Positions 1,735-22,024 of a DNA stretch of 24,000 nt are shown here, in pieces (positions within the stretch are counted from its first letter, which is position 1; every line of letters begins with the position of its first letter). The translations under genes and the position numbers were made by a program. Source of the DNA: Terrimicrobiaceae bacterium. GTDB lineage: Bacteria > Verrucomicrobiota > Verrucomicrobiia > Chthoniobacterales > Terrimicrobiaceae. Location: positions 1 to 24,000 of the forward strand of contig JBGSVZ010000127.1 in the NCBI GenBank assembly GCA_041752695.1. The letters run 5' to 3'. The notes below the pieces were generated by a model that saw only the letters and a program-made list of their open reading frames with translations, had not been told where the DNA came from and did not search any database.

Positions 1735-2265
1735 CTATTCCCAGGAAGTTACGTAGCGACGCTTTTTCTGGCCATCATTCGCGCCGGCATGGGTACCGGG
1801 AACATTCCAAACGGCGACTTTTTTCATCGGAGACTGGCTGTTCGTGCCGGCGGCTCCATTGATACGATTGTCGTAGTCATCGTCGAATACAATTTGATAG
1901 GCAGACCCCCAGGGATCAACAAAAGCACTTCCACTCAGTCCGCTTTTCCCCTTCTTGGCGGTTTGCACTTCCATGAAGACAATCTGACGAGGATTGGGAA
2001 CGGTGGTCGAATTAGAACCCATGAGGGCTTGAATCAATGCGCCATCCACCGGTATCGCCGAAGCGTTTGTCATAGGCAACCGACCGTATTCGGTTTCGTA
2101 GGCGGTCACTGCCGTGGCAATTTGCACGACGTCGTTCTTGGCTTGGGCACGGCGGGCGGAGTCGATGGCGGAATTCACGGCCGGGAAGAGCAGCGCCATG
2201 AGGATCCCGATGATGGCGATTACGATGAGAAGTTCGATCAGGGTAAAGGCGCGGGAGGATTTCAT
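1735..2265 (-). CDS. Prepilin-type N-terminal cleavage/methylation domain protein (GspG-like type II secretion pseudopilin)
   Basis: The [31 protein letters not shown]-terminus is a class III signal with a hydrophobic helix. [14 protein letters not shown] resembles the GspG DPWG motif. The start was chosen at the internal ATG 2265, which has GGAG 10 nt upstream, rather than the ORF-track start 2316. The stop lies 7 nt upstream of tRNA-Gly. Confidence 0.8.
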
Positions 2266-2354
2266 GACGAAAATTTCTCCAGAAAGGTGGTTCGGGTCCG
2301 GCATCCGGGCAAGCATTTTCTTGCCAGCGGGGCCGCCTTTCGCGAGAAAGCTGT

Positions 2355-8517: not shown

Positions 8518-10560
8518 TCAAGCCGGCGTCGCTTTCTGCAGGAACTGTTGGTGTCCGAGGACCGCCTTTTCAAAAGCCTCGTGTTCCCCCGCATCCAACC
8601 ACTCCGGAAGTCGGGCGGCAGAGCGCTGCCATTTTGCCAGCCACTCGGGACCGAGCAGCTCGTGACGGCTGGCCAGAGGGGTTTCCCGCGCGGCCGGGGT
8701 GAAAGCGATGGTCGTCTCCTGTTTCGCTCCGGTGCTGCGTCCGCGCGCGACGAGAAATCCCGCGACAAGCAAGGCCGCCCGCGAGGCCGTGGAAACGGTG
8801 TAGGTGAAAAGCTCGGCCGGACGATGGCCGCAGACCGCGAAGAGACGGCGGAACGCCGCCAGCGTCCACTGGTCGCCGTTCGTTTTGCCGGAGAACATGT
8901 CGTAAAAAATTACCTCCGGCGGCTCGGGGGCGAGGGCCATGGATTCCTGGAAATTTCCCGGCACCAGCGTCCAGCTCAGGCCCGGGTGCAGGCGCGATTC
9001 CCAGCGTCCGGTTTTCAGAATTCCGGACGGTCCACCGTGGCGCAGGTAGGTGAAAAGTTCGTTGTATTCAAAAGCCAGCCGCAGCGAGTCGAGATCGTTT
9101 TCGAAGCTGATGAGATGCATGGGCCGGACCGGGCCGGTGGCGGCCTGTTCCTCGTAGCAGCGGATCGCTCCCATCGCGTTGGCGGCCGCGCCGAGACCGA
9201 CGTCCCAGATGACCAGGGGTTCTGACGAAAGATCCGGCCGCACCCGCTCAGCGAGATGGGATTGCTCGATATACAAGCGCCGCGCCTCCTCCATCGGGGG
9301 CGTGCGTGAGTGCATGATTTCCCCGGAATCCACGTGGAGGATGCTGGCGAAGCCCTCCCGCGCGGTGTGGATGCGATACGCGCCGCGGGTGGGTGGTTTG
9401 ACTTTTTTCGGTCCAGGATCTACCGCCGGATTGTCGAGATCGTCCTCCTGGAGGAAGGCGCGCTTGGCGTGATAAAGGTCCAAAAACCGATCCGCCAGAA
9501 TGCTCTCGCGGATCTCCCGCATGAGCTGATGGTAAAAATGGATGTTGTGTTTGCCGAGCAACTGCCAGCCGAGCGTCTCCTTGGTCTTGGTGAGATGGTG
9601 CAGGTAGGCGCGGGAATACCGCGCACAGGTTGGACACTCGCAGGCGAGGTCGAGAGGCTCCTGGGAAAACTTATACACGCCCCGACGCATCTGCAAAAAA
9701 CCACGGGAGGTGAAAGCCCCGCCGCGCTGGGCGACTTGCGTGGGGATAATGCAGTCAAACATATCGACGCCGCGATGCACGGCTTCGAGAATGTCCAACG
9801 GCGTGCCCACGCCCATGAGGTAGCGCGGTTTGTCCTCCGGCAGAAGCGCCGCCGTAAATTCGCACATGTCCTCGCGTTCGGCTTTGCTCTCGCCCACCGC
9901 GAGGCCGCCGATGGCCATGCCGTCGAAATCCAAGGCACAGAGCCCTTCTGCGCTGGCGCGCCGCAGGTCTTTGTACAGCGCGCCCTGCACGATGCCGAAC
10001 ATCGCCTGCAAGGAATCCCCACGCGCCGCCAGACTGCGCACGGCCCACCGCTGGGTGAGTTCGAGGGCGTCGCGGGTGGTGGCTTCATCGGAGGTCGAAG
10101 CCACGCACTGGTCGAGCGCCATCATGATGTCGCTGCCGATGGCAATTTGCGTTTCGATACTCAACTCGGGGCTGAGCAGAATGGTTTTCCCGTCGAGATA
10201 ACTTTGAAAAACCGCGCCCGCCTCGGTCATGGACCGTGAGTGCGGCAGGGAAAAAATCTGAAACCCGCCGGAGTCCGTCAGCACGGAACGCTTCCAGCTC
10301 ATGAAACCGTGAATTCCCCCCGTGTGACGGAACACCTCCGGACCGGGACGCAGGAGCAGGTGGTAGGTATTGGCTAACAGGATCTGCGAACCCGAGGATT
10401 CCAGCGTGTCCGGCCGCTGGGCCTTCACCGTGGCCTGCGTGCCGACGGGCATGAAGAGCGGGGTGAGGACCTCGTTGTGCAAAGTCTGGAATCGGGCCGC
10501 GCGGGCGCTCGACCCGGAGGCCCGGGCTTCAACGCGGAAATTCAGACGATTCATGGGCAA
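8518..10560 (-). CDS. tgt: tRNA-guanine transglycosylase (queuine tRNA-ribosyltransferase) fused to a C-terminal MnmC-like (DUF752-type) SAM-dependent methyltransferase domain
   Basis: Residues 1-372 carry all Tgt hallmarks:
- FMPVGTQATVK
- LANTYHLLLRPG
- TDSGGFQ
- GMAIGGLAVGE
- PRYLMGVGTP
- GVDMFDCIIPT
- Zn site CECPTCARYSRAYLHHL
Residues about 393-620 resemble the MnmC methyltransferase module:
- GEIMHSRTPPMEEARRLYIEQS
- VIWDVGLGAAANA
- HLISFEND
- VIFYDMFSGKTNGDQWT..FRRLF....AELFTYTVSTASRAALLVAGF. Confidence 0.85.
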   Translation of the reverse strand: MPMNRLNFRVEARASGSSARAARFQTLHNEVLTPLFMPVGTQATVKAQRPDTLESSGSQILLANTYHLLLRPGPEVFRHTGGIHGFMSWKRSVLTDSGGFQIFSLPHSRSMTEAGAVFQSYLDGKTILLSPELSIETQIAIGSDIMMALDQCVASTSDEATTRDALELTQRWAVRSLAARGDSLQAMFGIVQGALYKDLRRASAEGLCALDFDGMAIGGLAVGESKAEREDMCEFTAALLPEDKPRYLMGVGTPLDILEAVHRGVDMFDCIIPTQVAQRGGAFTSRGFLQMRRGVYKFSQEPLDLACECPTCARYSRAYLHHLTKTKETLGWQLLGKHNIHFYHQLMREIRESILADRFLDLYHAKRAFLQEDDLDNPAVDPGPKKVKPPTRGAYRIHTAREGFASILHVDSGEIMHSRTPPMEEARRLYIEQSHLAERVRPDLSSEPLVIWDVGLGAAANAMGAIRCYEEQAATGPVRPMHLISFENDLDSLRLAFEYNELFTYLRHGGPSGILKTGRWESRLHPGLSWTLVPGNFQESMALAPEPPEVIFYDMFSGKTNGDQWTLAAFRRLFAVCGHRPAELFTYTVSTASRAALLVAGFLVARGRSTGAKQETTIAFTPAARETPLASRHELLGPEWLAKWQRSAARLPEWLDAGEHEAFEKAVLGHQQFLQKATPA

Positions 10561-10716: not shown

Positions 10717-11763
10717 TCAACGAACCGGCGCGTGGCAAAACCCTCCGCCATGTTTGGCGGCATATTGCTGATGGTATTCCTCAGCCCGGTAAAAGGGGCC
10801 CGCAAGTTCCACCTGGGTGACAATGGGGTTTCTGAAAGCGCCGTCTTTTTCCAGACGGGCAATTTTGACGCGGGTGGCGGCCTCTTGTTGCGGTGTGGTG
10901 AAAAACACTGCCGAGCGGTAGTTGTCGCCCACGTCAAACCCCTGACGGTTCAAGGTGGTGGGATTATGGATATCGAAGAGCCCGTCCAGCAACTGCGCGT
11001 AAGAGACGACAGCCGGATCGTAATCCACCTTCACCACTTCAGCATGGCCGGTCCTGTGGGAGCAAACCTGGTCGTAGGTCGGATCCTGTGTCGAGCCTCC
11101 CGCATAGCCGACCGCGGTCGCGGTGACGCCCTTCATCTTGCTGAAGGCTTCTTCCACGCCCCAGAAGCAACCTGCCCCGAAGATGGCTGTCTCTGTTTGG
11201 CGCGGAGCCTTATCCTGAAAACTCAGCGAGGCAGAGTTGATGCAGTAACGCAGACCGGTGGGTACGGGACCATCTGAAAAGACATGGCCAAGATGCGTGT
11301 CGCACCGGGCGCAATGGATCTCGTCGCGCGCCATGCCATAACTCACATCCCGGTCTGTCGCGACATTTTCCGCCGCGACCGGCTGGAAAAAGCTGGGCCA
11401 GCCGGTGCCGGATTCAAATTTCGCATCTGATCGGAAGAGCGGCAGCCCGCAGCCCACACAGGAATAGACCCCTTCCTTATGGTTGTCGTGAAACATTCCA
11501 CAGAATGCCCGCTCCGTCCCCTGGGCCCGGGCGACTTTGTATTGCTCCAGCGTGAGGCGGGCTTTCCATTCTTCGTCCGTCTTGATCACGCGGGGAACCA
11601 AAGCGGGTTCGTTGAGAGTGCCGTCCTCCCTGAGGAGGCGAACGGTGACATTTTCCGGTTTTGTTTTCATAGGGTTTGGTTTCGCGCCTGCCTGGACATT
11701 GAGCAGCGAGGCCGCGAAGAGTCCACCGGCAAGGGCGGCGAAGGAGATGACGAGAAATTTCAT
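10717..11763 (-). CDS. msrAB: Secreted bifunctional methionine sulfoxide reductase MsrB-MsrA
   Basis: 348 aa.
- N-terminal signal peptide: [26 protein letters not shown].
- MsrB (SelR) domain with two CxxC Zn motifs (CVGCG, CARCD) and catalytic RYCINS.
- MsrA domain with GCFWG and [12 protein letters not shown].
No thioredoxin domain is present. Confidence 0.9.
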
Positions 11764-11777
11764 AATATGGTATTCCG

Positions 11778-11807
11778 ATAAGTCGGAATCGGGTGGGAAT
11801 CCTTACG
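11778..11807 (-). promoter_or_regulatory. Regulon motif site A (upstream of msrBA): CGTAAGGAT-N11-TCCGAC-TTAT
   Basis: One of seven aligned sites with invariant GTAAGG and CGAC 15 nt apart. It ends 14 nt before ATG 11763. The downstream half lies within the perfect dyad ATTCCGA-CTTA-TCGGAAT (11772-11789). Confidence 0.5.
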
Positions 11808-11840
11808 ACAAACGAAATGTGCGAACGGAGATTCAGGATG

Positions 11841-11870
11841 TGTAAGGAAACCAGGCTTTGAACGACCAAT
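11841..11870 (+). promoter_or_regulatory. Regulon motif site B (upstream of the membrane-protein/Rieske operon): TGTAAGGAA-N11-AACGAC-CAAT
   Basis: Same motif and spacing, divergent from site A. ATG 11869 overlaps the motif. The next in-frame ATG, at 11878, lies 7 nt downstream. Confidence 0.55.
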
Positions 11871-12585
11871 GCGCGGGATGGGAGTAACTTTGGCCATTTC
11901 GTTTTGGACCGTCGCGGGGATCTACCTGGCGATCGGCTTGCTTTTTGCCGTGCCGTTCGTGATCCGGTGGGCCGGACGCCTCGACCCCGCGGCGGAGAAG
12001 GGAACCTGGGGTTTCCGGATGGCGATTCTTCCGGGGGTGGCGGCGCTGTGGCCGTTGCTTCTGCTGAAAATGCTGCGTTCCCGGCGCGATCAGCCGGCTC
12101 CTCCCGACACCGGGCAGGTCGCCACCGCTGCGGGTCTGCGGCGCATGCATGGAGTGGCCATTGTGCTGCTGGCGGTGATCGTTCCGGTGGTTTGCGTGGG
12201 CGCTTTGATGGGACGCCCCCGCGAACGGCACTCGACGGTCACCCAACTCCAGACGCGACCACTCCCGCAGGTGATTTCCCTTCCGACGGCGTGGCCGGAA
12301 GCGCTCCCCATCACGGCCTCGCTGCGGACCGATGGAACGCGCTCCCAGTTGCAAATGGATGTCACCCAGCCTCTGGAGGATCCCGTCGTCGCACTGTACT
12401 GGAGTCCGGGAAAGAACGAGTCGGGGGTGACGAAGGACGCCGTTTTTCTGGGGTCCCTCTGGGGACCTTCCACTCTTTTGTTCGAGCTTCCTGAGAAGGC
12501 CCGGACCCAACCCGGTTATCTGACTCTGCTCGCCCTCGCCGGTGAGCAGCGGGTCATCGGTTCCCTCCCTCTCCCGGCAAAATAG
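11869..12585 (+). CDS. Hypothetical membrane protein (3 predicted TM helices plus a C-terminal soluble domain)
   Basis: 238-aa ORF with hydrophobic helices (LAISFWTVAGIYLAIGLLFAVPF, MAILPGVAALWPLLLL, VAIVLLAVIVPVVCVGAL). The stop lies 2 nt before the next gene's start, which indicates an operon. The alternative start 11878 fits the promoter geometry better. No family was recognised. Confidence 0.55.
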   Translation: MRGMGVTLAISFWTVAGIYLAIGLLFAVPFVIRWAGRLDPAAEKGTWGFRMAILPGVAALWPLLLLKMLRSRRDQPAPPDTGQVATAAGLRRMHGVAIVLLAVIVPVVCVGALMGRPRERHSTVTQLQTRPLPQVISLPTAWPEALPITASLRTDGTRSQLQMDVTQPLEDPVVALYWSPGKNESGVTKDAVFLGSLWGPSTLLFELPEKARTQPGYLTLLALAGEQRVIGSLPLPAK

Positions 12586-12587
12586 CC

Positions 12588-14399
12588 ATGTCCGTCGCCT
12601 ATCATTCCGTCGGATGGAATCGTCAAAAGCGCCTTTACGATGGGGTGATCGGCGGACTCCTCCTCCTCGTCTTGCTGGCGTACGCCGGGACGGTTTTTCT
12701 TTTCCAGCCTCTGACGACCGCGGAGACGTTCATCATTCGATTCACGGCCATCGCCGCGCTCACGCTGCTCCATGTGATCCTGGCCATCGGACCACTAGCC
12801 CGGCTGGACCCCCGCTTTTTGCCGTTGCTGTACAATCGCCGCCATCTGGGGGTGACGATGTTCGTGTTCGCCGCGATCCACGGGGTCTTCTGCATCATCC
12901 AATTTCACGCGGCTGGTGATGTGAATCCGCTGGTCAGCGTGCTGACCGCCTATCGCCGCGAATATCTGGCGGCGATATCCGGCGGGGAAAGTTTCGGGTA
13001 TTTTCCTTTTGAAGCGCTGGGCCTCGCCGCGCTGGGGATCTTCTTTCTCATGGCCGCAACAAGTCATGATTTTTGGCTGAAGAATCTGGGGCCATCGTTT
13101 TGGAAGATCCTGCACATGCTGGTCTATCTCGCCTATGGTCTGGTGCTCGCGCACGTCTTTCTCGGAGCGCTTCAGTCCGAACGGAGTCCATTTTTTCCCG
13201 CGGTGCTGGGCGCGGGCTTCGTGGGACTCGTCGGGATGCATCTGGCCGCGTTTGCGCAAGAGCGCCGGCGCGACCGCCTGCGGCAGGAGGCCGCCCGGAA
13301 TGGGTTTGTTTCCGTGGCCACGCTGGGAGATTTGCAACCGGATCTCGGACATGTGGCATTGCTGAACGGCGAGCGCATCGCCCTTTTCCTGCGCGGAGGC
13401 AAAGTCTTTGCCCTATCCAATGTCTGCCGGCATCAGGGCGGCCCGCTGGGTGAGGGACGGATTGTCAACGGCTGCCTGACCTGCCCCTGGCACGGATACC
13501 AATACAAGGTGGAAGACGGGTGCAGCCCTCCGCCGTTTACGGAGGTCGTCCCCACGTATTCCGTGCAGGTGATCGGTCAGGAAATTCATGTTTCGTCCGA
13601 TCCGCTTCCCCTCGGGACGCGGTCCGAGGGCGTGGCGGCTGGGAAGGCGGAGGATTCCCGATCTTCCGGAGAGTTTTACATTGGCTGGCAATCGAAGATT
13701 CCGGCCGGCCTCGGGAGATCCGTCCGTTCCGTGGTCCTCGGCCTTGGTGTCGCCCTGCCTCTCCTTTTTGTGTTCCTGGCCCATTGGCAGAATCCGGTGG
13801 ATGTGGGGGCGTTCGAGTTCGGGGTCGAGCGGGATTTCTCCGGCGTTCTTTTCGAGTCTCCCCTTCCGCTTCTGCAAGCGGATTGGGGCGATTCGCCTGC
13901 CGGCAAAAATTTTCTTCTCGTGGGAGCGGGCAAGTTCGGGCCGCCCGGGGTGATCAAAGGAAAAAACGGCCAGCGGGTTCGCTTCAAGGGCTCGCTCATC
14001 TACCGGAACGGCGTGACCATGATCGAGATGAACCAGCCCGATTCGTTCGAAGTTCTTGATGAAACCCGCTCGGCCATGCCGCCGCTCACGACGCTGGGAG
14101 AGGGGACGTTTAGCGGGGAACTGGTGGACACCAAGTGTTTCTTCGGAGTCATGCGTCCGGCCACCGGCAAGGTGCATCGCGCCTGCGCCGTCGTCTGTCT
14201 GAGCGGCGGGGTTCCTCCCGGACTTCTCGTGCGGGACGATCACCGCGATGCCGTCGTCCTGCTGCTGGTCGGGGCCGAAGGAAAGCCGTTGGACATCGAC
14301 TTCGAACTGGCGGCCCGGGTGCTGGAGGTTCACGGCAAACTGGAACTCCACAGTGGGACCCCGGTTCTGCGGGTGGACTCATGGAGGGTGAAGGACTGA
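12588..14399 (+). CDS. Multidomain membrane redox protein: ferric-reductase/MsrQ-like 6-TM heme domain, Rieske [2Fe-2S] domain, a seventh TM helix and an unknown C-terminal domain
   Basis: 603 aa.
- The TM region has RRHLGVTMFVFAAIHGVF and WKILHMLVYLAYGLVLAHVF, His-bearing helices like YedZ/MsrQ and PF01794.
- The Rieske motifs are CRHQGGPL (C280/H282) and CPWHGYQY (C299/H302), at nt 13425-13493.
- An extra TM helix spans residues 378-400.
- The C-terminal 200 aa contain three Cys (CFFGV..HRACAVVCLSGG). Confidence 0.8.
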   Translation: MSVAYHSVGWNRQKRLYDGVIGGLLLLVLLAYAGTVFLFQPLTTAETFIIRFTAIAALTLLHVILAIGPLARLDPRFLPLLYNRRHLGVTMFVFAAIHGVFCIIQFHAAGDVNPLVSVLTAYRREYLAAISGGESFGYFPFEALGLAALGIFFLMAATSHDFWLKNLGPSFWKILHMLVYLAYGLVLAHVFLGALQSERSPFFPAVLGAGFVGLVGMHLAAFAQERRRDRLRQEAARNGFVSVATLGDLQPDLGHVALLNGERIALFLRGGKVFALSNVCRHQGGPLGEGRIVNGCLTCPWHGYQYKVEDGCSPPPFTEVVPTYSVQVIGQEIHVSSDPLPLGTRSEGVAAGKAEDSRSSGEFYIGWQSKIPAGLGRSVRSVVLGLGVALPLLFVFLAHWQNPVDVGAFEFGVERDFSGVLFESPLPLLQADWGDSPAGKNFLLVGAGKFGPPGVIKGKNGQRVRFKGSLIYRNGVTMIEMNQPDSFEVLDETRSAMPPLTTLGEGTFSGELVDTKCFFGVMRPATGKVHRACAVVCLSGGVPPGLLVRDDHRDAVVLLLVGAEGKPLDIDFELAARVLEVHGKLELHSGTPVLRVDSWRVKD

Positions 14400-14479: not shown

Positions 14480-14695
14480 TTACCGGGTCTTGGAATTGCC
14501 CGAACCCACGAGCTTCTCGAACTTCATCTGGATCGAGTTGTCTTTCATGACCTTCGTCTTGACCTGATACTGCGCGCCGCAGGAGGTGCAACGGAAGGCA
14601 GGGGCAACGACGACGGTTTCTTCCGCCATGGCGGAGGTTCCGAGGAATCCCAGCGCCAAGGTGGCGAGGGCCAGTGTTTTTGTTAGTGTTTTCAT
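14480..14695 (-). CDS. Small secreted protein with a CxxC motif (71 aa)
   Basis: Internal ATG at 14695 of ORF 14480-14845; the longer form would overlap the NRDE gene. It has a signal peptide MKTLTKTLALATLALGFLGTSAMA followed by EETVVVAPAFRCTSCGAQYQVKTKVMKDN... It has its own motif site C and a downstream terminator. Confidence 0.6.
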   Translation of the reverse strand: MKTLTKTLALATLALGFLGTSAMAEETVVVAPAFRCTSCGAQYQVKTKVMKDNSIQMKFEKLVGSGNSKTR

Positions 14696-14737
14696 AGTTA
14701 TTAATTTTTGTTTCAACGCATGATTGTGCGCTTGCAG

Positions 14738-14767
14738 ATGAGTCGGGGTCGGGCTTGAAACCTTACA
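14738..14767 (-). promoter_or_regulatory. Regulon motif site C (upstream of the small CxxC protein): TGTAAGGTT-N11-CCCGAC-TCAT
   Basis: Same invariant GTAAGG-N15-CGAC. The TAA within TGTAAGG is the stop codon of the NRDE gene (14763-14765). The leader to ATG 14695 is 42 nt, the only long leader in the set. Confidence 0.45.
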
Positions 14768-15503
14768 GTGCGCTGGAAGAGAACCCGGCGGACAGACGGA
14801 GGGACATGGTGAATGGGGGCCCGCTGCAACAAGGTGGTCCGGCATGATAGGCCATCACCGCCCCGGTGGAGTTCAGGGAGATCTCCGTGCAACTGACGGT
14901 GCAGGCATCGGCGCGGTGCATGCAGAGGGAAAACGCACCGTTGGTGGGAACATGCGAACGATGCAGCCGGCGCAGCCAGGGAAGCGTGTCAGCGTCGGCT
15001 TCTCCGGCGGCATCGCCGCAGGTCAGGCGGCGCACGTGATTGGCTTGCTCCTCATCGAAACCGGAGGAAAACCAGTGGCATTTTTCCCAGGGCAGAGCGG
15101 AGCCTTCCAACAGGCTTCCACTCGATCTCCATTCCTGGAGACGTTTTTCGCTTGGCGAAACGATGATCAGCCGAAAGGGGTTCATGCGCGAAAGTGGCAG
15201 TGCCTTGAGCCGGACTTCCGCCTCCCCGGCGGTTTCTTCGGCGAGCAGAGCGGGAATGACCTCGCCGCGACTGAGTGTGCCGGCGAGTTGGGGCTGGGAA
15301 TACCAGTTGATGAGGGCCAGAGTGAGGCCCGACTCATTAATGCCAGCCCATGTGCCGCCATGGAGTTCGTGGGGATAGAGTGCGGCCAATCCGCCGCACC
15401 GATGAATCGAAGGCGGCAAGGCCGCCGGGCGCGAAAGGAGCTCGTCGCGATTCATTAGCAGATCAAATCCGCCGGAATGAGGGAGGAAGGAAACCGAGCA
15501 CAT
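14763..15503 (-). CDS. NRDE family protein (DUF833 / TANGO2-like, N-terminal Cys)
   Basis: 246 aa. It begins MCSVSF and contains the family-defining LMNRDE motif at residues 16-21. The start lies 3 nt after the upstream gene's stop. Confidence 0.75.
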   Translation of the reverse strand: MCSVSFLPHSGGFDLLMNRDELLSRPAALPPSIHRCGGLAALYPHELHGGTWAGINESGLTLALINWYSQPQLAGTLSRGEVIPALLAEETAGEAEVRLKALPLSRMNPFRLIIVSPSEKRLQEWRSSGSLLEGSALPWEKCHWFSSGFDEEQANHVRRLTCGDAAGEADADTLPWLRRLHRSHVPTNGAFSLCMHRADACTVSCTEISLNSTGAVMAYHAGPPCCSGPPFTMSLRLSAGFSSSAL

Positions 15504-15506
15504 GAA

Positions 15507-17105
15507 TCAGTCGGCCAGGGGATGACAAAGGCTGCGCGATTGATATCGCCTCCATTCGGAAAAGATCGTCCTCAAGGTATCCGCCCGATGACCAAGGCGG
15601 CGGTTCTCACTGGCAATGGCAAAGACAAGTTCCCATTGCTCGAAGAGGAGGCGATAGGCTTCCCTCAGCGATTTCGAGGCATCATAGGCGCTGGTGGCTT
15701 CCGAGGCTGCGCCATTGAGTTCGAGGATGGTGAAGCCCCGGCCGCACTGAAATTCCTCCAGCGATGCAAACCTCACGTCATAACGACCAATGAAAAAGCC
15801 GGGGACTTTCTGCGAAATCTCATCGATACGGGCCTCGAGTTGTTCGCTCCAAAGATGCATGCCGTCGCGAAAAATACAGCCTTGGGCGTGGTTGCCGGCC
15901 TCGACCAGCCGGAGGCTTTGGCCGAAGGGAAGAACCACATCGCACCGGTCCCGGAACCGGCGCAGATAGACGTCCGCCATCATGGCCGCCCGGGCATCAG
16001 CGCGGATGAGTTCCTCCACGCTCCGATGACCGTCGCCAAAGACCACCGGAAAAATTTTCTCGGTGATGGCAAAAATGCGGCCGCAGGGCTCGTGCGGAAA
16101 CCGGTAGTAGAACACTCCCGTTTCGTGCGGGCCGGGAACGTATTTTTGGGCAACGATCGGGACATTCACCGCCGCGAGATAGTTGCAGACATCACTCTCC
16201 GTTCGGGCAACCTTGAACCCGCTACCCCGCTGGGCCACATCAGGCTTGAGCACAAAGGGGAATTCCAGTTCCCCACGTTGCAGAAGATCCTCGATCGGTG
16301 CCATGCAGCCTCCCTCGATCAGGAAACTCGGCGCGACCCAATCCGGGCTGGATCGCTGAAGGTCTTGCAGCGTGGCGTATTTCGATTCGCCGATGAGCCC
16401 GCCGGTGAACATGCCGGGATTGGCGCAGGTGGGGAGATTAAATCCGCGATACTTGACCGACAGCCGCAGGTACTGGAACGCAACGGGAAGGTAGAACAAC
16501 CACGCTGGCCAGAACTCCCATTGCAGCCAGCGCTGCACCCACGGAGCACGATGAAGGGCCCCGGTGATTTTTCCGCGGAAGGGGATCAGGACGGACAGAA
16601 CAAGAATGAGCAGACCAACCCACGCCCCGTGGCGGTGGAGGGCATGAAAAAGTTCCGGTGCGGCTTTTCCCAGTTGGCCGACGAGCCAGAAGCCTCCCGC
16701 CACCCAGAGTGCGGCCAGGAGACCGGTGATACCGGCAAAAAACAGCACCGGCATCCGCAGCAGCCCCGCGGTGAGGTAGGTCGGCAGACGGGTGCCGGGA
16801 ATGACCCGGCAAATTACCAGGGAAAGGAGTCCATGGCGGCTAAACCAGGCTTCGCTTTGCGCAAGCTTTTCCATGGTGCGGTCGTTCTTCCCCCAAAGCC
16901 GGTTGACCAACGGCCGGCCAAATTGCCGGGCAATGAAATAGAGCCCGACATCCCCCGCCCAGATACCAAGGAAACAGGCGACGAAGGCGGGCCTCGCGGC
17001 CATCATGTTCATCGAAGCGAGAAACCCGCCGCTCAAAACCGCCGCGTCCTCGGAGAGAAACGTGAAAAAGAAGAGTCCGGCAAAATACCAGGCGTCCGGT
17101 TCCAT
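15507..17105 (-). CDS. Membrane fusion protein: DedA/VTT (SNARE-associated) domain plus C-terminal ATP-grasp ligase domain
   Basis: 532 aa.
- The N-terminus has FLSEDAAVLSGG and GIWAGDVGLYFIARQFGRPLV...CRVIPGTRLPTYLTAG, the DedA/PF09335 pattern, plus further TM helices.
- The C-terminal 300 aa or so have ATP-grasp features: FPFVLKPDVAQRGSGFKV, IVAQKYVPG, FPVVFGDGHRSVEELI, and FTILELNGAASEATSAYD. Confidence 0.7.
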   Translation of the reverse strand: MEPDAWYFAGLFFFTFLSEDAAVLSGGFLASMNMMAARPAFVACFLGIWAGDVGLYFIARQFGRPLVNRLWGKNDRTMEKLAQSEAWFSRHGLLSLVICRVIPGTRLPTYLTAGLLRMPVLFFAGITGLLAALWVAGGFWLVGQLGKAAPELFHALHRHGAWVGLLILVLSVLIPFRGKITGALHRAPWVQRWLQWEFWPAWLFYLPVAFQYLRLSVKYRGFNLPTCANPGMFTGGLIGESKYATLQDLQRSSPDWVAPSFLIEGGCMAPIEDLLQRGELEFPFVLKPDVAQRGSGFKVARTESDVCNYLAAVNVPIVAQKYVPGPHETGVFYYRFPHEPCGRIFAITEKIFPVVFGDGHRSVEELIRADARAAMMADVYLRRFRDRCDVVLPFGQSLRLVEAGNHAQGCIFRDGMHLWSEQLEARIDEISQKVPGFFIGRYDVRFASLEEFQCGRGFTILELNGAASEATSAYDASKSLREAYRLLFEQWELVFAIASENRRLGHRADTLRTIFSEWRRYQSRSLCHPLAD

Positions 17106-17111
17106 GACGCC

Positions 17112-17642
17112 TCAGGCCGCCAGGCGGGCCGTTTTTTGAAGGTGTTGGATCGTCGAAGGCGCGACCCCGAATCCCTCCGGCAGCGCCACCTCCAACAAGC
17201 CGCCCATCACGCCGATGAGAGCGTAGTGATGGATGGCATGGACGGTGCAAAACATCAGCTCGCGGCCCACGGTCGAGGCCGCCATGGGAGAGTCAACCGC
17301 AGAATAGGAAACCTGGCTCCGGGCCCACACAAAACGATCCAGCCCGGCTTCCGGCATCTCGCCGGCTTTGCGGCGAAGTTCCCGGGTTTTGGCCAGCGCC
17401 ACCTCCCGTTCGGTCTCGATGCGCGGATCGCGCTTGCGGGCATCGTAATCGGCCACCTCGTCCTCAAGGCCATCGAAAACACAGCAAAAATGATCCAGAC
17501 AGTGCCGGTAGTGACCCCCAATGGAGGCATGGAACGCGGCCGGGACCTTGATCATGTAGGCCGCATCATCGAGAGCCACCAAAAGCGTTTCGCCCTGTCC
17601 GAGGATCTCCCGCACTGCGTTGAGAATGATGGACGAATTCAT
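17112..17642 (-). CDS. DinB-family (DinB_2-like) four-helix-bundle metalloprotein
   Basis: The start was taken at ATG 17642, which forms an ATGA overlap with the DoxX stop (MNSSIILNAV...). The His triad signature is IGGHYRHCLDHF and VHAIHHYALI. The gene ends 6 nt before the next start. Confidence 0.65.
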   Translation of the reverse strand: MNSSIILNAVREILGQGETLLVALDDAAYMIKVPAAFHASIGGHYRHCLDHFCCVFDGLEDEVADYDARKRDPRIETEREVALAKTRELRRKAGEMPEAGLDRFVWARSQVSYSAVDSPMAASTVGRELMFCTVHAIHHYALIGVMGGLLEVALPEGFGVAPSTIQHLQKTARLAA

Positions 17643-18046
17643 TTCGCGATCAGATTCCCGACTAGGGGAATCGTGCGGCGGTAGATCAAAAGAAGAACGG
17701 CGCAGCACACGGCAACCACCAACGCCAGTCCGAAGAGCAAACCGTGATCGCCCTGCACCTCGATGCCAAGCACGGTCAGGTGACTCATGATGGCGCCTCC
17801 GATCACGCCCAGCGCGAGGCCCGCCCCGAGCCAGGTCAGACCCGGCCAGAACAGCAGAATGGCGGCAATCAATTCAACCACCCCTGATCCGATGCGACCC
17901 CAGGGTTCGAGACCGACTTTGGTGAAGATATACACGGACTCCGGAGCGGAGGTGAATTTGAAGAACAAGGTCTGCAGCAGGATGACGGCCGCGACGATCC
18001 GGCAGATCCAGGCCAGGACCACTTCGGTTTTGTTGAGTTCATGCAT
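17639..18046 (-). CDS. DoxX family membrane protein
   Basis: 135 aa with four TM helices. RIVAAVILLQTLFFKF, GSGVVELIAAILLF and GGAIMSHL fit the DoxX pattern. Confidence 0.75.
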   Translation of the reverse strand: MHELNKTEVVLAWICRIVAAVILLQTLFFKFTSAPESVYIFTKVGLEPWGRIGSGVVELIAAILLFWPGLTWLGAGLALGVIGGAIMSHLTVLGIEVQGDHGLLFGLALVVAVCCAVLLLIYRRTIPLVGNLIAK

Positions 18047-18055
18047 AGGTTTCCG

Positions 18056-18085
18056 ATTCGTCGGACGTCCCAGGCATTCCTTACA
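18056..18085 (-). promoter_or_regulatory. Regulon motif site D (upstream of the DoxX operon): TGTAAGGAA-N11-TCCGAC-GAAT
   Basis: Same motif. It ends 9 nt before ATG 18046. The downstream half forms the dyad TCCGA-CGAA-TCGGA (18052-18065). Confidence 0.6.
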
Positions 18086-18103: not shown

Positions 18104-18844
18104 CTATTTCTCCAGCCAGCCGCCGACAGCCTGTAGGGGAGCCAGGCTTTGTGGGGAGTGCACCCACACGGCCAGGGCGGAAAGGGGAGCGGCTGCTTTC
18201 TCGGGAAGCACAAGTTGCGCGGTGTATTTGCCGGCAGCAGAGGCAACCATTTCCGACTGCACGAAACCCAGCGCCAGGAAATTGTGCTGCAAAATTTTTC
18301 CCGCATTCTCACCACGCCGGACTTCGGTGCCCACGCCCTGCCCCAAGGGGACGAGCGCAACCGTCAGCGGGCCGTTGACTCTTCCAGCCGGGATGAAGGA
18401 GACATCGACCGTCCCGTCATCGCTCACAGTGACGCGGAGCCGCCCGGCTTTTTCCTTCGAGGGGGCTGGCAGTGCACCGCTCCTCCGCCATTCCGCGCCG
18501 TTGAGCACGAATTCCGGCGTGTAGATGGTGGACGCGTTCCATTCCTCACCGTAGGCCCGTTGGCGCTGGGTGAATTCCGCGGAGGCGAACCGGTCGGGCC
18601 AGCCGAGCGAATCCCAGTAGTCCACATGAAACGCAACGGGAACAAACTCCTTCCACAGGCCAGATTGGTCCTTGAGACCGCCCAGCCACGCTTCCGCTGG
18701 CGGGCAACTGCTGCACCCCTCCGAAGTGAAGAGCTCCAGAAGGGCAACCCGCTCCTCCGGACTCTCCAGAACGGCCGCGCTGCGGGCCTTTCCGACGCAC
18801 ACGGTCAGGACGGCGAGGGCGAGGAGGGAAAATGCAGGGTGCAT
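18104..18844 (-). CDS. DUF1223 domain protein (secreted, thioredoxin-like CxxC)
   Basis: 246 aa with a signal peptide. LELFTSEGCSSCPPAEAWL, FHVDYWDSLGWPDRF, FTQRQRAY and IYTPEFVLNG match the DUF1223 family signature. Confidence 0.85.
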   Translation of the reverse strand: MHPAFSLLALAVLTVCVGKARSAAVLESPEERVALLELFTSEGCSSCPPAEAWLGGLKDQSGLWKEFVPVAFHVDYWDSLGWPDRFASAEFTQRQRAYGEEWNASTIYTPEFVLNGAEWRRSGALPAPSKEKAGRLRVTVSDDGTVDVSFIPAGRVNGPLTVALVPLGQGVGTEVRRGENAGKILQHNFLALGFVQSEMVASAAGKYTAQLVLPEKAAAPLSALAVWVHSPQSLAPLQAVGGWLEK

Positions 18845-18853: not shown

Positions 18854-19300
18854 TTATTTCCCCTTTTTCTCCACGAGGGAGGGCCAGTTCGTGTCAGCCT
18901 TCTTGAGGTTTCCGGCACTATCCTTGCTGAAGTCTTTCCTTACTCCGAGGCTGTATTGCAAAAGCAGGCGGCCATCAACGATCTGGAACGCGTTCGGGTC
19001 AATCGAAGCGGAGTAGCCCTGGGACACGGCCCAGGCGCAGAAGCCACCGAATTGGGGTTCGTATTTCGCGGGATTCGCATCGAAGGCGGCCTTGTGCTCG
19101 GCCGTCGCGAAATAATAGATCACCCCGTTGGCGCTGCTCTGAAATTTGGGGTCGCCTTTCACGGCCTTGTTGTCGGTGAAATACGCGACCGGGTCGTAAC
19201 CCTTGATTCCCACTCCGCTTCGGTCGGTATTGACGAGGTCCTTGCCCAGGGCAAAGGGAGCAAGAGCGATGAGCACTGCAATGATGAGATAATTTTTCAT
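18854..19300 (-). CDS. YHS domain-containing secreted protein
   Basis: 148 aa with a signal peptide. GYDPVAYF, YYFATAEHKAAFDANPAKYEPQFGGFCAWAV and DGRLLLQYS match YHS-type proteins. It lies 9 nt upstream of the DUF1223 gene. Confidence 0.85.
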   Translation of the reverse strand: MKNYLIIAVLIALAPFALGKDLVNTDRSGVGIKGYDPVAYFTDNKAVKGDPKFQSSANGVIYYFATAEHKAAFDANPAKYEPQFGGFCAWAVSQGYSASIDPNAFQIVDGRLLLQYSLGVRKDFSKDSAGNLKKADTNWPSLVEKKGK

Positions 19301-19305: not shown

Positions 19306-19335
19306 ATTGGTCGGACAGCCAACGGTTTCCTTACA
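19306..19335 (-). promoter_or_regulatory. Regulon motif site E (upstream of YHS-DUF1223): TGTAAGGAA-N11-TCCGAC-CAAT
   Basis: Same motif. It ends 5 nt before ATG 19300. Confidence 0.6.
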
Positions 19336-19347: not shown

Positions 19348-19668
19348 TCAGTGGCCCTCGTTCCGTAAGGCCTGCTTGAGCCGCTCTTGCGCGGCGGGTG
19401 AAAGGCCCCCGCCTTGCTCCAGGTGTTTTGGTAATTGGCTGATGGCCTTACCCAGAAAATCGATCTGCCGAAGGTAGCGGGCGCAGAACTTGCAAAACAT
19501 CCGGTGGAGGTGAAGCCGGAATCGCAATACGGGAGGAAGCTTTCGGTCGCGTCCCTCAGAAGTCAGCCTCACCACCTCATGGCAATCGGGCGTGATCAAC
19601 CAGATCAGATCGGCCAAGGCGCTTCTGATTCCACGGGGTTCATGATGCGTGTCGGGAGGATGAGGCAT
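19348..19668 (-). CDS. Zinc-binding anti-sigma factor (ZAS, zf-HC2 type), soluble and RsrA-like in size
   Basis: 106 aa. The spacing C29-x25-H55-x3-C59-x2-C62 (PDCHEV ... HRMFCKFC) is the ZAS signature. There is no TM segment. It lies directly downstream of the ECF sigma gene. Confidence 0.75.
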   Translation of the reverse strand: MPHPPDTHHEPRGIRSALADLIWLITPDCHEVVRLTSEGRDRKLPPVLRFRLHLHRMFCKFCARYLRQIDFLGKAISQLPKHLEQGGGLSPAAQERLKQALRNEGH

Positions 19669-19675: not shown

Positions 19676-19705
19676 TTTCGTCGCGTTCAGGCGCAATTCC
19701 TTACA
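19676..19705 (-). promoter_or_regulatory. Regulon motif site F (upstream of the anti-sigma gene): TGTAAGGAA-N11-CGCGAC-GAAA
   Basis: Same motif. It ends 7 nt before ATG 19668, in the 122-nt gap between the sigma and anti-sigma genes. Confidence 0.55.
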
Positions 19706-19790: not shown

Positions 19791-20412
19791 TCACAGCTGG
19801 CGTCCGCCCTCTCCCCCAAAGTAGCCCAACTCCAGGCAAAGCCGCAACGCCAGGCGGGCCCGGTGCAGCATGACCCAGAGGTTCGATTCGCTGACGTTGA
19901 GAGTGGCGCAGATCTCCTTGCTCGGAACATCATCCATCTCACGCATCATAAAAACCTGCGCGGTTGGCCCGGGGATCTTCTGCAGGCACAGTTGCAGAGC
20001 CTGCCAGAATTCGTTCCGTTTGAGCGCCTCCTCACCTTCGGGGCTTCCAATCGGTGGGTCCGCGCTCGTGGATCCAATAATCCTCGCCGTCGAAACGGTC
20101 GGAGTGTTCGTCCTTGAAAAATTCCAGATCGGTGAAACTCGTTTCGCGTCCGAGTTTGCGGAAGTGGTCACAGATCTTGTTTTTGAGGATTCCCACCAGC
20201 CAGCTCCGCACACCCGACCGGCCCGCAAAACGTTCCTGCGAGCGCACCGCTGCCAGGAGAGTGTCTTGCACAAGATCTTCCGCCAGAGTCCCGTTACGCA
20301 CCCGAATGAGGGCATAGCGGTAAAGGCAGTCACCGTGTTCGTCCACCCATTTTTCGGGATCCGCATCTGCCGGACTCGAGCCGGGCTGCTTGAGATGATT
20401 GGAAATTTCCAC
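19791..20412 (-). pseudogene. ECF-type RNA polymerase sigma-70 family factor, interrupted by a single-nucleotide frameshift (or a sequencing error)
   Basis: Region 2 (DLVQDTLLAAVRSQERFAGRSGVRSWLVGILKNKICDHFRK) is in ORF 20032-20412, which has a GTG start. Region 4 (FWQALQLCLQKIPGPTAQVFMMREMDDVPSKEICATLNVSESNLWVMLHRARLALRLCLE) is in the +1-shifted frame of ORF 19791-20525. The frames meet at the coding-strand sequence AAG CCC CGA AGG TGA, where the + strand reads GGGG at 20041-20044. Deleting one C gives a continuous ...DWKPEGEEALKRNEFW... protein of about 206 aa. Confidence 0.75.
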
Positions 20413-20468
20413 GGTGACAGACAGACCGTTTTCTTATCGGGGCTCCAGAGGCGTGAAAAGAAGATTTC

Positions 20469-20498
20469 TGTAAGGAATCGCCTGACCTCCCGACCAAA
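20469..20498 (+). promoter_or_regulatory. Regulon motif site G (upstream of the olsB-like gene): TGTAAGGAA-N11-CCCGAC-CAAA
   Basis: Same motif on the + strand. It ends 6 nt before ATG 20505, in the divergent region shared with the sigma gene. Confidence 0.6.
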
Positions 20499-20504
20499 CG
20501 GGCA

Positions 20505-21275
20505 ATGATCGCGCTCCGCCCGCACCTTCTCTCCGGACTATTTTCCCGGCGGCACTACCAGGTGCGCTTCGCCAAAACGCGCGATGAGGTTGAGGCGGCG
20601 TTGCGGTTGCGATTTGCCGTCTTCAATCTCGAACTTCACGAAGGATTGGTTTCCTCCTACGCCAGCGGGCTCGACGAAGACGAATTCGACGCCGTCTGCG
20701 ATCACCTCGTCGTTTGTGAAGAACCCAGCGGCGAGGTGGTTGGCACCTACCGCCTGCAAACCGGGGCCATGGCGGCACAGAATCTCGGCTACTATAGCGC
20801 CCGTGAATTTGATTTCTCGCCCTTCGAACCGGTGCGGCATTCTCTCGCGGAACTCGGCCGGGCCTGTGTCCACAAAGACCACCGAAACCTGACCGTCATC
20901 AGTCTGCTCTGGAGGGAGATCGTCCGCTACGCTGTCGCCCGAAAAGCGCGCTACCTGATTGGGTGCAGCTCGCTGACCTCGCAAGATCCAGCGTTTGGTC
21001 TAGCGATGTACCGGCGACTGGCGGAAAAACATCTGGCGGACCTCACTTTTCAGACCAGACCGCTCCCGGAGTTCGCCATGACCGGCAGCCCGGCGCTCGG
21101 GGATTGTCCGCCTCCGCCCAAATTGCTCCGGGCTTACCTCAATGTAGGCGCGAAAATCTGCGGCCCACCCGCGCTGGACCGGGAATTCCAGACGATAGAT
21201 TTTCTCACCCTGCTCGACTGTGACAACGGGTCGCCCGTTGCGATCAAACATTTCCTCACCCTTCACAACTCGTGA
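20505..21275 (+). CDS. olsB: GNAT-family N-acyltransferase, OlsB-like (acyl-ACP:amino acid N-acyltransferase of aminolipid synthesis)
   Basis: 256 aa. ALRLRFAVFNLEL, DEDEFDAVCDHLVV, VVGTYRLQ, YYSAREFDF, ELGRACVHKDHRN and YLIGCSSL follow the OlsB / hemolysin-like Acetyltransf_5 pattern. It has a GTGA overlap with the downstream acyltransferase. Confidence 0.75.
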   Translation: MIALRPHLLSGLFSRRHYQVRFAKTRDEVEAALRLRFAVFNLELHEGLVSSYASGLDEDEFDAVCDHLVVCEEPSGEVVGTYRLQTGAMAAQNLGYYSAREFDFSPFEPVRHSLAELGRACVHKDHRNLTVISLLWREIVRYAVARKARYLIGCSSLTSQDPAFGLAMYRRLAEKHLADLTFQTRPLPEFAMTGSPALGDCPPPPKLLRAYLNVGAKICGPPALDREFQTIDFLTLLDCDNGSPVAIKHFLTLHNS

Positions 21276-22024
21276 GTGCCGGGCAATTTCTGTGTGCGCT
21301 CTTGCGCGTCGGCGGTCTCGGAGCCGTGATCGTGGCTGGCATTTTTCGCTACCAAAAAGCAAGGCGCACGTCGGACGACCTGCCAGGGAAACTGGCCTGG
21401 ATGCAGGGGATGAGCCGGGGTTTTCTGCGCGTCCTGGACTGCGACGTTCATCGCACGGGGAACATTCCCCGGCAGGGCCTCATTGTCAGCAACCATCTCA
21501 GCTATGTGGACATCCTCGTGATCGGATCCGTCTGCCCCGCGGTCTTTGTGGCCAAGAGCGAGGTGCGCCGTTGGCCAGTCTTTGGCTGGTTGAGCGAAAT
21601 GGCCGGGGCCATTTTTGTCGAACGCCACCGGAGTCGCAATGTGCGCGTTCAACTGGCGGAAATCATCCGTCCGCTCGAGGCGGGATTGCCCGTGGTTCTT
21701 TTTCCTGAAGGCACGAGTTCGGACGGTTCCCGGGTTTTGCCCTTCCACAGTTCCCTGCTCGAAGCGGCACGTGAGGCGCAACAGACAGTGACCCCCTGCG
21801 CCATCTCGTATGGGTGGCTGGACGGTGGGAGCGAGTGCCACGACGTGTGTTATTGGGGCGACATGGTTTTCGCCGTGCATCTCTTCAAACTGCTCTCCAA
21901 AAAAAAATCCCTACGGGCGGGAGTGTCTTTCGGACAGCCCCGCGCGCTCGTCACCGACCGGAAGCGCGAGGCTGTTCGTTTTCAGAAGGAAGTCGCCGGA
22001 CTGCTTAATAACTGTGCACCGTGA
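21272..22024 (+). CDS. olsA: Lysophospholipid/lyso-aminolipid O-acyltransferase, PlsC family (OlsA-like)
   Basis: 250 aa with a GTG start. It has an N-terminal TM helix, the HX4D motif in VSNHLSYVDILV, and the FPEGTSSDG motif. It is paired with the olsB-like gene. Confidence 0.75.
   Translation: MSAGQFLCALLRVGGLGAVIVAGIFRYQKARRTSDDLPGKLAWMQGMSRGFLRVLDCDVHRTGNIPRQGLIVSNHLSYVDILVIGSVCPAVFVAKSEVRRWPVFGWLSEMAGAIFVERHRSRNVRVQLAEIIRPLEAGLPVVLFPEGTSSDGSRVLPFHSSLLEAAREAQQTVTPCAISYGWLDGGSECHDVCYWGDMVFAVHLFKLLSKKKSLRAGVSFGQPRALVTDRKREAVRFQKEVAGLLNNCAP

Follow-up and report, generated by a model that had tools for sequence, protein, structure and literature searches.

The established routes by which reducing power reaches the periplasm are the thiol-disulfide cascades of DsbD and CcdA and the heme/molybdenum pair MsrQ-MsrP. 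Escherichia coli MsrQ (YedZ) carries one b heme and flavin mononucleotide (FMN), and its arginine (R) residues R77 and R78 are needed for FMN binding (PMC12525009). For secreted methionine sulfoxide reductases (Msr) of the MsrAB type, DsbD/CcdA/ScsB is the established route (PMC13488963; PMC3322552). Zhang et al. (2013, PLoS One, PMC3591440) catalogued a bacterial combination of a ferric-reductase domain (FRD) with a Rieske domain as model M4. Here we analysed a stretch of 24,000 nucleotides (nt) from a Terrimicrobiaceae bacterium (GenBank assembly GCA_041752695.1, contig JBGSVZ010000127.1, positions 1 to 24,000; hereafter the window), in which an open reading frame (ORF) of 603 amino acids (aa), ORF603, joins an MsrQ-like FRD to a Rieske-type [2Fe-2S] domain and, through a seventh transmembrane (TM) helix, to a domain of about 200 aa that is predicted to face the periplasm. 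The fusion is widespread, and its gene neighbourhood is conserved. Its members are nevertheless uncharacterised, and we found no functional study of the FRD-Rieske family in the literature. We give an even chance to the interpretation that ORF603 is an outward transmembrane electron carrier on the MsrQ/STEAP plan with both of its ends fused.

Comparison with E. coli MsrQ revealed a common six-helix FRD (30% identity over 134 aa, pairwise E = 1e-6), three corresponding histidine (H) residues, an arginine pair and a presumed inside-to-outside design. ORF603 differs in its fused Rieske domain as putative cytoplasmic donor, where MsrQ has the soluble flavin reductase Fre, in a fused oligonucleotide/oligosaccharide-binding (OB)-like domain as candidate periplasmic acceptor, with no MsrP encoded in the window, and in the additional invariant histidines H86, H160 and H218. 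Because it scored 39.8 bits against the NCBIfam MsrQ equivalog, below the cut-off of 130, ORF603 is on sequence grounds MsrQ-like and not an MsrQ ortholog. STEAP and NOX/FRE proteins also consist of an FRD core fused to a cytoplasmic electron-input domain, and the histidine pattern of STEAP and YedZ is that of ORF603; their input, however, is an NADPH/FAD dehydrogenase and not a Rieske domain, and they have no fused extracytoplasmic acceptor domain of the ORF603 type. DsbD/CcdA/ScsB likewise bring cytoplasmic reducing power to periplasmic repair enzymes, but by thiol-disulfide exchange without heme or Fe-S; they show no sequence or fold kinship to ORF603, and none is encoded in the window. Searches of the PDB with Foldseek and with the sequence matched the Rieske domain to Rieske ferredoxins (CarAc, BphA3/BphF, the NDO ferredoxin and others, with Foldseek TM-scores of 0.78-0.89). 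These oxygenase ferredoxins and mouse RFESD have the same fold and CxH...CxxH ligands, also without the bc1 disulfide; the oxygenase ferredoxins are soluble stand-alone shuttles, whereas the ORF603 domain is inserted between TM6 and TM7. Model M4 has the same combination of FRD and Rieske domain, described as an 'electron transfer agent' extension of bacterial FRD; that article catalogues the architecture only and reports no function, partner genes or periplasmic domain. According to the legend, M4 contains an FMN-binding domain besides the Rieske domain and may therefore differ from the ORF603 family (PMC3591440).

Pfam placed ORF603 in the FRD superfamily by a match of residues 54-185 to Ferric_reduct (PF01794; 44.5 bits, cut-off 28) and assigned residues 243-324 to Rieske (PF00355; 50.9 bits, cut-off 20.3), while residues ~340-603 gave no Pfam or NCBIfam family match at threshold. 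An alignment with MsrQ paired H98 (AAIH98GV), H176 (ILH176MLVY) and H189 (LAH189VF) with MsrQ H91, H151 and H164, and R84 and R85 with R77 and R78. These five residues, as well as the Rieske ligands cysteine (C) 280, H282, C299 and H302 (nt 13425-13493), are invariant in 15 relatives with 49-69% identity, and R84 lies 14 residues ahead of H98. The YedZ/STEAP pattern comprises three histidines, with an arginine in place of the inner TM3 histidine (Zhang et al. 2013, PMC3591440). ORF603 matches this pattern, with R84 at the inner position, and not the four-histidine NOX pattern. A NOX-type FRD with four histidines and two hemes was rejected: 12 is not a fitting distance between H86 and H98, and the residue at the inner position is R84, an arrangement also seen in YedZ.

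The full-length AlphaFold2 (AF2) model of ORF603 (predicted local distance difference test score, pLDDT, 77.5) showed six helices, a beta-rich Rieske domain, helix 373-400 and a beta-rich C-terminal domain. The sequence has seven hydrophobic helices. Of the lysine and arginine residues near the membrane, 15 are in presumed cytoplasmic loops and 1 is in a presumed periplasmic loop, which should place the Rieske domain and the N-terminus inside and the C-terminal domain outside. A preliminary description of this DNA had proposed this order and topology, MsrQ-like helices bearing histidines and the position of the Rieske ligands; the Pfam matches, the model, the charge distribution and the conserved histidines and arginine pair agree with it throughout, and its ligand coordinates were exact. 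Foldseek searches of the PDB with the full-length model returned matches only to Rieske domains. Rieske boxes of the bc1/b6f type (CTHLGC and CPCHGS) each contain a second cysteine, and the two form a disulfide at the cluster side. The boxes of ORF603, CRHQGG and CPWHGY, have no second cysteine and are thus not of this type. In dual Sec-Tat Rieske membrane proteins, a twin-arginine motif precedes the last helix and the cofactor domain is exported after that helix (Tooke et al. 2017, PMC5449189). Such an export of the ORF603 Rieske domain was rejected: the domain sits between TM6 and TM7 on the positive side, and no conserved arginine pair precedes TM7 in fused or standalone forms. A PDB sequence match to superoxide reductase (E = 0.53) was treated as chance, since the His4Cys ligand set is absent.

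Residues 369-603, modelled separately from 36 sequences, gave an AF2 model with a pLDDT of 91.8 that comprises two OB-like barrels as well as the anchor helix. C517, methionine (M) 522, H530, C533 and C537 all lie on an insert with a helix-loop-helix form. These five residues, spaced C-x4-M-x7-H-x2-C-x3-C, are invariant in 83/83 aligned loci spanning the motif, and proline (P) 524 is invariant alongside them. The idea that a motif cysteine is selenocysteine in some homologs, which would mark a catalytic residue, was ruled out, as none of the 83 aligned loci has an in-frame stop within the motif. The best Foldseek match in the PDB (E = 1.3e-3) was a tandem-OB single-stranded DNA-binding protein, with the internal domain of MCM10 among the weak matches, and Pfam gave only sub-threshold matches to DUF5818, on either barrel depending on the member. 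Judged from the model, the domain is without a solved structural relative.

An exhaustive HMMER search detected the periplasmic domain in 1644 representative clusters, and most of the best 150 of these are standalone anchored proteins of about 250 aa. In one split locus (L084) the gene order is [...Rieske][anchor + C-terminal domain][GNAT], so that the gene for the C-terminal domain stands next to an FRD-Rieske gene, and one protein of 515 aa (P0257) combines FRD and C-terminal domain with no Rieske domain detected by Pfam. These two arrangements indicate that the constant pairing is that of the FRD with the periplasmic domain and that the Rieske domain is a frequent, not an obligatory, input, which appears dispensable in some lineages. 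Since separate genes and fusions to the FRD only both occur, and the motif is invariant, we regard the periplasmic domain as the key partner of the TM domain. No fusion of the periplasmic domain to thioredoxin, YHS or Msr was found; the longer matches were truncated FRD-Rieske proteins or FRD plus C-terminal domain without a detected Rieske domain.

A homolog search with ORF603 yielded at least 8000 scored candidates, the best 120 of which were examined and are full-length proteins of about 600 aa; database proteins with this architecture number in the thousands. A scan with one genome per species confirmed at least 598 stretches with ORF603 relatives. Carriers amount to hundreds of species in at least eight phyla and include Verrucomicrobiota (for instance Chthoniobacter), Acidobacteriota, Bacteroidota (among them the cultured Flagellimonas aquimarina and Nibrella viscosa, L032 and L036), Planctomycetota, Gemmatimonadota, Cyanobacteria, Alphaproteobacteria and others, with the closest named relatives (67-70% identity) in Chthoniobacterales and Terrimicrobiaceae. 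The preliminary description was not aware of a published fusion of Rieske and MsrQ-like domains; given this distribution and the listing of FRD plus Rieske as M4 in the 2013 article (PMC3591440), a claim of novelty for the fusion is overstated.

Gene context was analysed in 80 species loci of ORF603 relatives, with Msr genes counted within 6 kb. Directly upstream of the fusion gene, 76/80 loci contain an ORF for an anchored protein of about 140 aa, usually as a separate gene, and 62-66/80 have a gene for a protein of about 75 aa with two TM helices (2-TM protein) just upstream. In the window, both are represented within a single frame, ORF238, and alignments of both of its parts revealed conserved residues; neither ORF238 nor the ~140-aa partner nor the 2-TM protein has a Pfam or NCBIfam match. 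By comparison of the frames, ORF238 is best described as a lineage-specific fusion of the two conserved upstream partner genes. The conserved partners of the fusion are thus the 2-TM protein and the ~140-aa anchored protein, not Msr.

Other neighbours are less constant: SDR (27/80 loci), ATP-grasp (19-23/80), OlsB-like GNAT (14-21/80), DinB_2 (20/80), YHS (17/80), TANGO2 (15-17/80), DoxX (15/80), OlsA-like acyltransferase (11/80), DUF1223 (4/80) and Msr (3/80). Downstream of ORF603, the window contains all of these accessory genes except SDR. Of the 80 loci, 33 share one or more accessory genes with the window and 21 share three or more; these loci belong to Verrucomicrobiota, Acidobacteriota, Gemmatimonadota, Bacteroidota and Alphaproteobacteria, and gene order and orientation vary between phyla. 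The YHS gene directly follows the fusion gene in six loci (L004, L005, L006, L032, L041 and L044). A relative with 69% identity (L081) has kept the whole synteny, including the msrBA side and an intact sigma/anti-sigma pair. In a Pfam census of 121 immediately flanking ORFs, thioredoxin, CcdA, DsbD and copper-handling genes were absent from the 25 most frequent families. Six Bacteroidota loci from Chitinophagaceae and related groups (L013, L016, L026, L036, L068 and L073) have an aquaporin/MIP channel, a secreted two-domain glyoxalase-like protein and an S8 peptidase ahead of the core, an upstream set unlike the accessory set of Verrucomicrobiota and Acidobacteriota.

The gene that diverges from the ORF238-ORF603 operon, msrBA, encodes a bifunctional enzyme with SelR (residues 70-183) and PMSR (residues 192-344) domains in Pfam and a score of 349.6 bits against NCBIfam PRK05550 (bifunctional MsrB/A; cut-off 330). 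The catalytic cysteine motifs GCFWG and RYCINS are visible in its translation, and its N-terminus, judged by eye and without a predictor, resembles a Sec signal peptide. Neither Pfam nor NCBIfam found a thioredoxin domain, so that MsrBA is not of the PilB type, in which thioredoxin is fused to MsrAB. A signal peptide without a fused thioredoxin had been noted in the preliminary description, as had the proximity of the fusion to MsrBA and not to a molybdoenzyme. Both observations hold, and no MsrP-type gene was found in the 34 scanned window ORFs, among the recurrent neighbours or in the 25 most frequent flanking families. The absence of an explained reductant for a secreted MsrAB without thioredoxin, on which the same description had built, is not a general puzzle: for the periplasmic MsrAB of Haemophilus influenzae, which lacks a thioredoxin domain, a separate thioredoxin and CcdA are tabulated as the redox partner (PMC13488963). 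Relevant to the reductant of MsrBA, the predicted regulon described below also includes a gene for a secreted DUF1223 protein that bears a CSSC motif.

Msr genes accompany the fusion in L004 and L006, where msrBA is on the same strand and directly upstream of the partner gene (with a 16-nt overlap in L004), and in L079, where the gene is for MsrA. Conversely, 80 metagenome loci were retrieved with MsrBA as query; fused MsrBA was present in 5/80, and the FRD-Rieske fusion or any accessory gene in 0/80, including a locus (L086) whose MsrBA is 68% identical. Co-occurrence of the fusion with Msr, which the proposed electron route to MsrBA led one to expect, is therefore largely lacking. What remains of that proposal is apparent co-regulation in this lineage, with which a route to MsrBA is compatible although no feature of the window calls for it; as a function of the whole family it finds no support in the 3/80 and 0/80 counts. 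The fusion and MsrBA are thus tied by regulation that they appear to share in this lineage and not by a partnership conserved across the family.

Shared regulation is suggested by a promoter-like motif, GTAAGGAW-N11-14-CGAC, which the window matches six times, whereas shuffled sequences give an expectation of 0.00; the core GTAAGGAW alone occurs seven times against 0.46 expected. All six sites point towards a start codon that follows 9-18 nt downstream, and the motif recurs at matching positions in verrucomicrobial relatives. Two of the six are site A (GTAAGGAT-N13-CGAC) and site B (GTAAGGAA-N13-CGAC), which bears out the earlier claim that msrBA and the divergent operon have one type of promoter. 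The distribution of the sites looks like that of an envelope redox-stress regulon under an extracytoplasmic function (ECF) type sigma factor, and the motif ahead of the anti-sigma gene suggests autoregulation. The CGAC of site B ends 2 nt ahead of the first ATG of ORF238 (11869); as a spacing of 11 nt, measured from the ATG at 11878, matches the other sites, the latter is probably the real start. The short distances between CGAC and ATG suggest leaderless or near-leaderless transcripts. The seventh core copy (GTAAGGAA, 18936-18943, minus strand) has no CGAC; it falls within the YHS gene, some 90 nt before DUF1223 begins, and could act as a weak internal promoter or have arisen by chance.

In the electron-carrier model, a cytoplasmic Rieske [2Fe-2S] centre of the low-potential type would accept electrons from a reductase and pass them to the inner cofactor site of the six-helix domain, where the FMN-binding residues of MsrQ are conserved. 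They would move on to a b heme near the outer face, with H98 and H189 as predicted ligands, and from there to the periplasmic domain on helix 7, whose invariant Cys3-His-Met cluster is the presumed redox or metal centre. ORF603 would operate together with the two conserved small membrane partners that are fused here as ORF238. The module would form one arm of an envelope redox-stress regulon run by the ECF sigma factor and the HxxxCxxC anti-sigma factor, with the secreted MsrBA, DUF1223 (CxxC), YHS, DoxX, DinB, ATP-grasp and TANGO2 proteins and the OlsB/OlsA-like pair as predicted members. The most likely task would be the supply of reducing power to periplasmic redox proteins. The YHS protein would be the best-conserved candidate client, consistent with the selenocysteine-containing members of its family (NF041384), and DUF1223 a further one, consistent with its CSSC motif and signal peptide; MsrBA would benefit at most in this lineage, and then probably indirectly. 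The domains, ligands, topology, conservation, neighbourhood and shared motif are seen in sequences or structure models; which cofactors are bound, which way electrons run, what the Cys3-His-Met site is and which protein is served are inferred. A broader claim can be formulated, which we put forward tentatively and consider rather unlikely: that the core trio of 2-TM protein, ~140-aa anchored protein and FRD-Rieske-OB protein is a widespread, hitherto unrecognised and DsbD/CcdA-independent system exporting reducing power, in which a Rieske-fed flavin/heme wire of the MsrQ type ends in a novel Cys3-His-Met centre that would re-reduce periplasmic thiol and selenol antioxidants such as YHS, DUF1223 and, in this lineage, MsrBA.

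Several observations weigh against the electron-carrier model. No cofactor has been demonstrated by experiment in any family member, and outward electron flow is an assumption based on the precedents of MsrQ, STEAP and NOX. No electron donor for the Rieske domain is encoded nearby, and in the flank census the commonest immediate neighbour is SDR. The Cys3-His site could be purely structural zinc, MCM10 being among the weak fold matches. Many accessory genes are cytoplasmic or lipid-related (ATP-grasp, TANGO2, DinB, OlsB/OlsA-like), and the module might therefore have another purpose than the redox repair of proteins. Only 17/80 loci have a YHS gene with the core, and the sigma gene reads as frameshifted in this assembly.

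Four other explanations were weighed. The ligand set of the periplasmic motif brings to mind a metal reductase like STEAP or FRE, which would reduce periplasmic Cu(II) or Fe(III), with the Cys/His/Met site binding and handing off the metal and YHS as metal-handling partner. CxxxC together with histidine and methionine are typical soft-metal ligands, and CxxxC with histidine is the copper motif of Sco proteins; moreover, the domain is not Tat-targeted, so that its cofactor should be loaded in the periplasm, which would suit a metal ion, and YHS is a neighbour in 17/80 loci. Characterised FRD members, namely FRE and STEAP, are ferric and cupric reductases (PMC3591440). We nevertheless think a metal reductase unlikely: among the 25 most frequent families of the 121 flanking genes there is none for copper or iron transport or homeostasis (no CopA, multicopper oxidase, Sco, siderophore or iron uptake gene), the annotation of the YHS family as (seleno)protein points to redox chemistry rather than metal carriage, and MsrBA, DUF1223 and the ZAS-type anti-sigma factor look like an oxidative or thiol stress response. 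A dedicated supply for MsrBA is improbable, although the divergent adjacency of msrBA and the operon, their common promoter type, the same synteny in the 69%-identical relative, msrBA directly upstream of the partner gene in L004 and L006, the MsrQ-like TM domain and the three invariant cysteines would all suit it. Here the fusion would replace the missing thioredoxin, with electrons running from Rieske centre to heme to periplasmic Cys domain and then to MsrBA, directly or via DUF1223. Against this stand the 3/80 loci with an Msr gene within 6 kb, the 0/80 MsrBA-query loci (L086 included) with the fusion or any accessory gene, and the lack of any detected fusion of the C-terminal domain to Msr, thioredoxin or YHS. 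Recycling of Msr also requires a two-electron dithiol donor, and a heme-fed domain in that role is conjecture. Other periplasmic MsrAB without thioredoxin domain use a separate thioredoxin and CcdA (PMC13488963).

The OB-like fold itself allows the periplasmic domain to be seen as redox-inert, with the Cys3-His set as structural zinc. Its role would then be to dock the actual acceptor, which could be a small molecule, the ~140-aa subunit or some other partner protein, while electrons would leave from the outer heme, the last donor in MsrQ as well. Zinc inserts of the CCCH or Cys4 type are common in OB domains, and MCM10 is among the weak matches. The precedent is MsrQ, whose heme directly reduces a separate periplasmic enzyme (PMC12525009). 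A structural zinc, however, leaves the invariance of M522 and P524 unexplained, and the domain is tightly coupled to the FRD in both fused and split forms; we therefore assign a low probability to pure docking. Finally, the sequence fixes no direction of flow and no cytoplasmic reductase is encoded nearby, so electrons could run inwards from a substrate oxidised by the periplasmic domain to the cytoplasmic Rieske centre, or the protein could be a redox sensor. All characterised members of the FRD superfamily export electrons (PMC3591440; PMC12525009), no conserved cytoplasmic acceptor enzyme stands beside the gene and Pfam detected no signalling output domain in ORF603, which makes inward flow very improbable.

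If the electron-carrier model is true, the ORF603 family represents a third design, an MsrQ-type wire with a built-in Fe-S entry and a built-in periplasmic end-station. With the client identified, thousands of genes that now bear no more than the label 'Rieske 2Fe-2S domain-containing protein' could be annotated, and the family could explain envelope defence against oxidants in hard-to-culture organisms of soil and aquatic phyla. A new reductant for MsrBA would be of less broad importance, because that pairing is confined to a few verrucomicrobial lineages.

The features of the locus and of the predicted regulon are listed in Table 1.

Table 1. Coordinates of msrBA, the ORF238-ORF603 operon, promoter-like motifs and accessory genes in the window.
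Feature	Position	Strand	Remarks
msrBA	10717-11763	-	348 aa; secreted bifunctional MsrB-MsrA without thioredoxin domain (Pfam, NCBIfam)
Promoter-like site A	11782-11806	-	faces msrBA
Promoter-like site B	11842-11866	+	faces ORF238-ORF603
ORF238	11869-12585	+	fused partner genes; residues ~1-85, 2-TM part; residues ~86-238, ~140-aa anchored part
ORF603	12588-14399	+	603 aa; FRD, Rieske, helix 7 and periplasmic domain; starts 2 nt past ORF238 end
Six-helix MsrQ-like FRD	12588-13256	+	ORF603 residues 1-223; Pfam PF01794
Rieske-type [2Fe-2S] ferredoxin domain, predicted cytoplasmic	13302-13595	+	ORF603 residues 239-336; Pfam, Foldseek, charge topology
Seventh TM helix	13704-13787	+	ORF603 residues 373-400; AF2 helix; hydropathy peak 379-397
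Periplasmic two-OB-like-barrel domain (modelled)	13788-14396	+	ORF603 residues 401-603; AF2
C517-x4-M522-x7-H530-x2-C533-x3-C537 motif	14136-14198	+	invariant in aligned loci
TANGO2/NRDE-like gene	14763-15503	-	Pfam TANGO2
DedA/VTT and ATP-grasp-like fusion	15507-17105	-	532 aa; Pfam VTT_dom; weak NCBIfam ATP-grasp matches
DinB_2-like gene	17112-17708	-	Pfam sub-threshold (E = 5.6e-4, 20.8 bits, cut-off 24.8)
DoxX-like membrane protein	17639-18046	-	Pfam DoxX_2 sub-threshold (21.4 bits, cut-off 26.3)
Promoter-like motif	18060-18084	-	upstream of DoxX-DinB-DedA/ATP-grasp-TANGO2 genes
DUF1223 protein, secreted, CSSC	18104-18844	-	Pfam DUF1223 (E = 1.7e-45); signal peptide and 'EGCSSCPP' in translation
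Secreted YHS-domain protein	18854-19300	-	NCBIfam NF041384
Promoter-like motif	19310-19334	-	upstream of YHS (then DUF1223)
Small soluble anti-sigma factor, HxxxCxxC (HRMFCKFC)	19348-19668	-	106 aa
Promoter-like motif	19680-19704	-	upstream of anti-sigma gene
ECF sigma factor gene, two frames	19791-20412	-	Sigma70_r2 in ORF 20032-20412; Sigma70_r4_2 in ORF 19791-20525
Promoter-like motif	20470-20494	+	upstream of GNAT-acyltransferase pair
OlsB-like N-acyltransferase	20505-21275	+	Pfam Acetyltransf_5
OlsA-like O-acyltransferase	21272-22024	+	Pfam Acyltransferase; overlaps OlsB-like gene

The YHS protein scored 144.6 bits against the NCBIfam family 'YHS domain-containing (seleno)protein' (NF041384; cut-off 70) and has a cysteine in GGFCA where some family members have selenocysteine. 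A published list of selenoprotein families includes this one, with GxU as its motif (PMC13188914). The anti-sigma factor scored 47.8 bits against NCBIfam antisigmaE, just below the cut-off of 50, and is 40% identical to the product of the zf-HC2 anti-sigma gene of L081. For the DUF1223 protein we presume the thioredoxin-like fold of its Pfam family. A tblastn search with the intact sigma factor of L081 located a frame switch near 20041-20057. Either the assembly is wrong at this point or the gene has a genuine frameshift, in which case the regulator would be inactive. The OlsB- and OlsA-like proteins matched the respective NCBIfam equivalog models below their cut-offs. Their pairing under a common motif suggests that an aminolipid is made within the stress regulon, with an amino-acid head group that is uncertain because of these scores.

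The true start of the DinB_2-like gene is probably the ATG near 17642. The ATP-grasp part of the type fused to DedA here recurs near the module across phyla, often beside TANGO2-like and DinB-like genes. The gap of 363 nt between ORF603 and the TANGO2 gene contains a small ORF (14480-14845, minus strand) with a CTSC motif and a signal-peptide-like stretch (MKTLTKTLALATLALGFLGTSAMA), probably starting at an internal methionine near 14695 and with a weak NCBIfam match to the BLB8/JUQZ-1 family (E = 0.004); in L081 the gap at the equivalent position measures only 29 nt. Just past the regulon, the window ends on its right side with genes for cytochrome bd oxidase, namely for subunit II and for a C-terminal portion of subunit I (22005-23992, minus strand). 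The left end of the window contains a weak phage-integrase-like ORF (337-1605, minus strand), an ORF similar to type II secretion pseudopilins with an N_methyl motif (1735-2316, minus strand) and an RNase R/II gene (2355-4586, plus strand). An ORF of 680 aa (8518-10560, minus strand) combines a complete queuine tRNA-ribosyltransferase (Tgt; 443.5 bits, equivalog) with a C-terminal MnmC2-like S-adenosylmethionine-dependent methyltransferase (Methyltransf_30), an unusual pairing of two enzymes that modify the tRNA wobble position.

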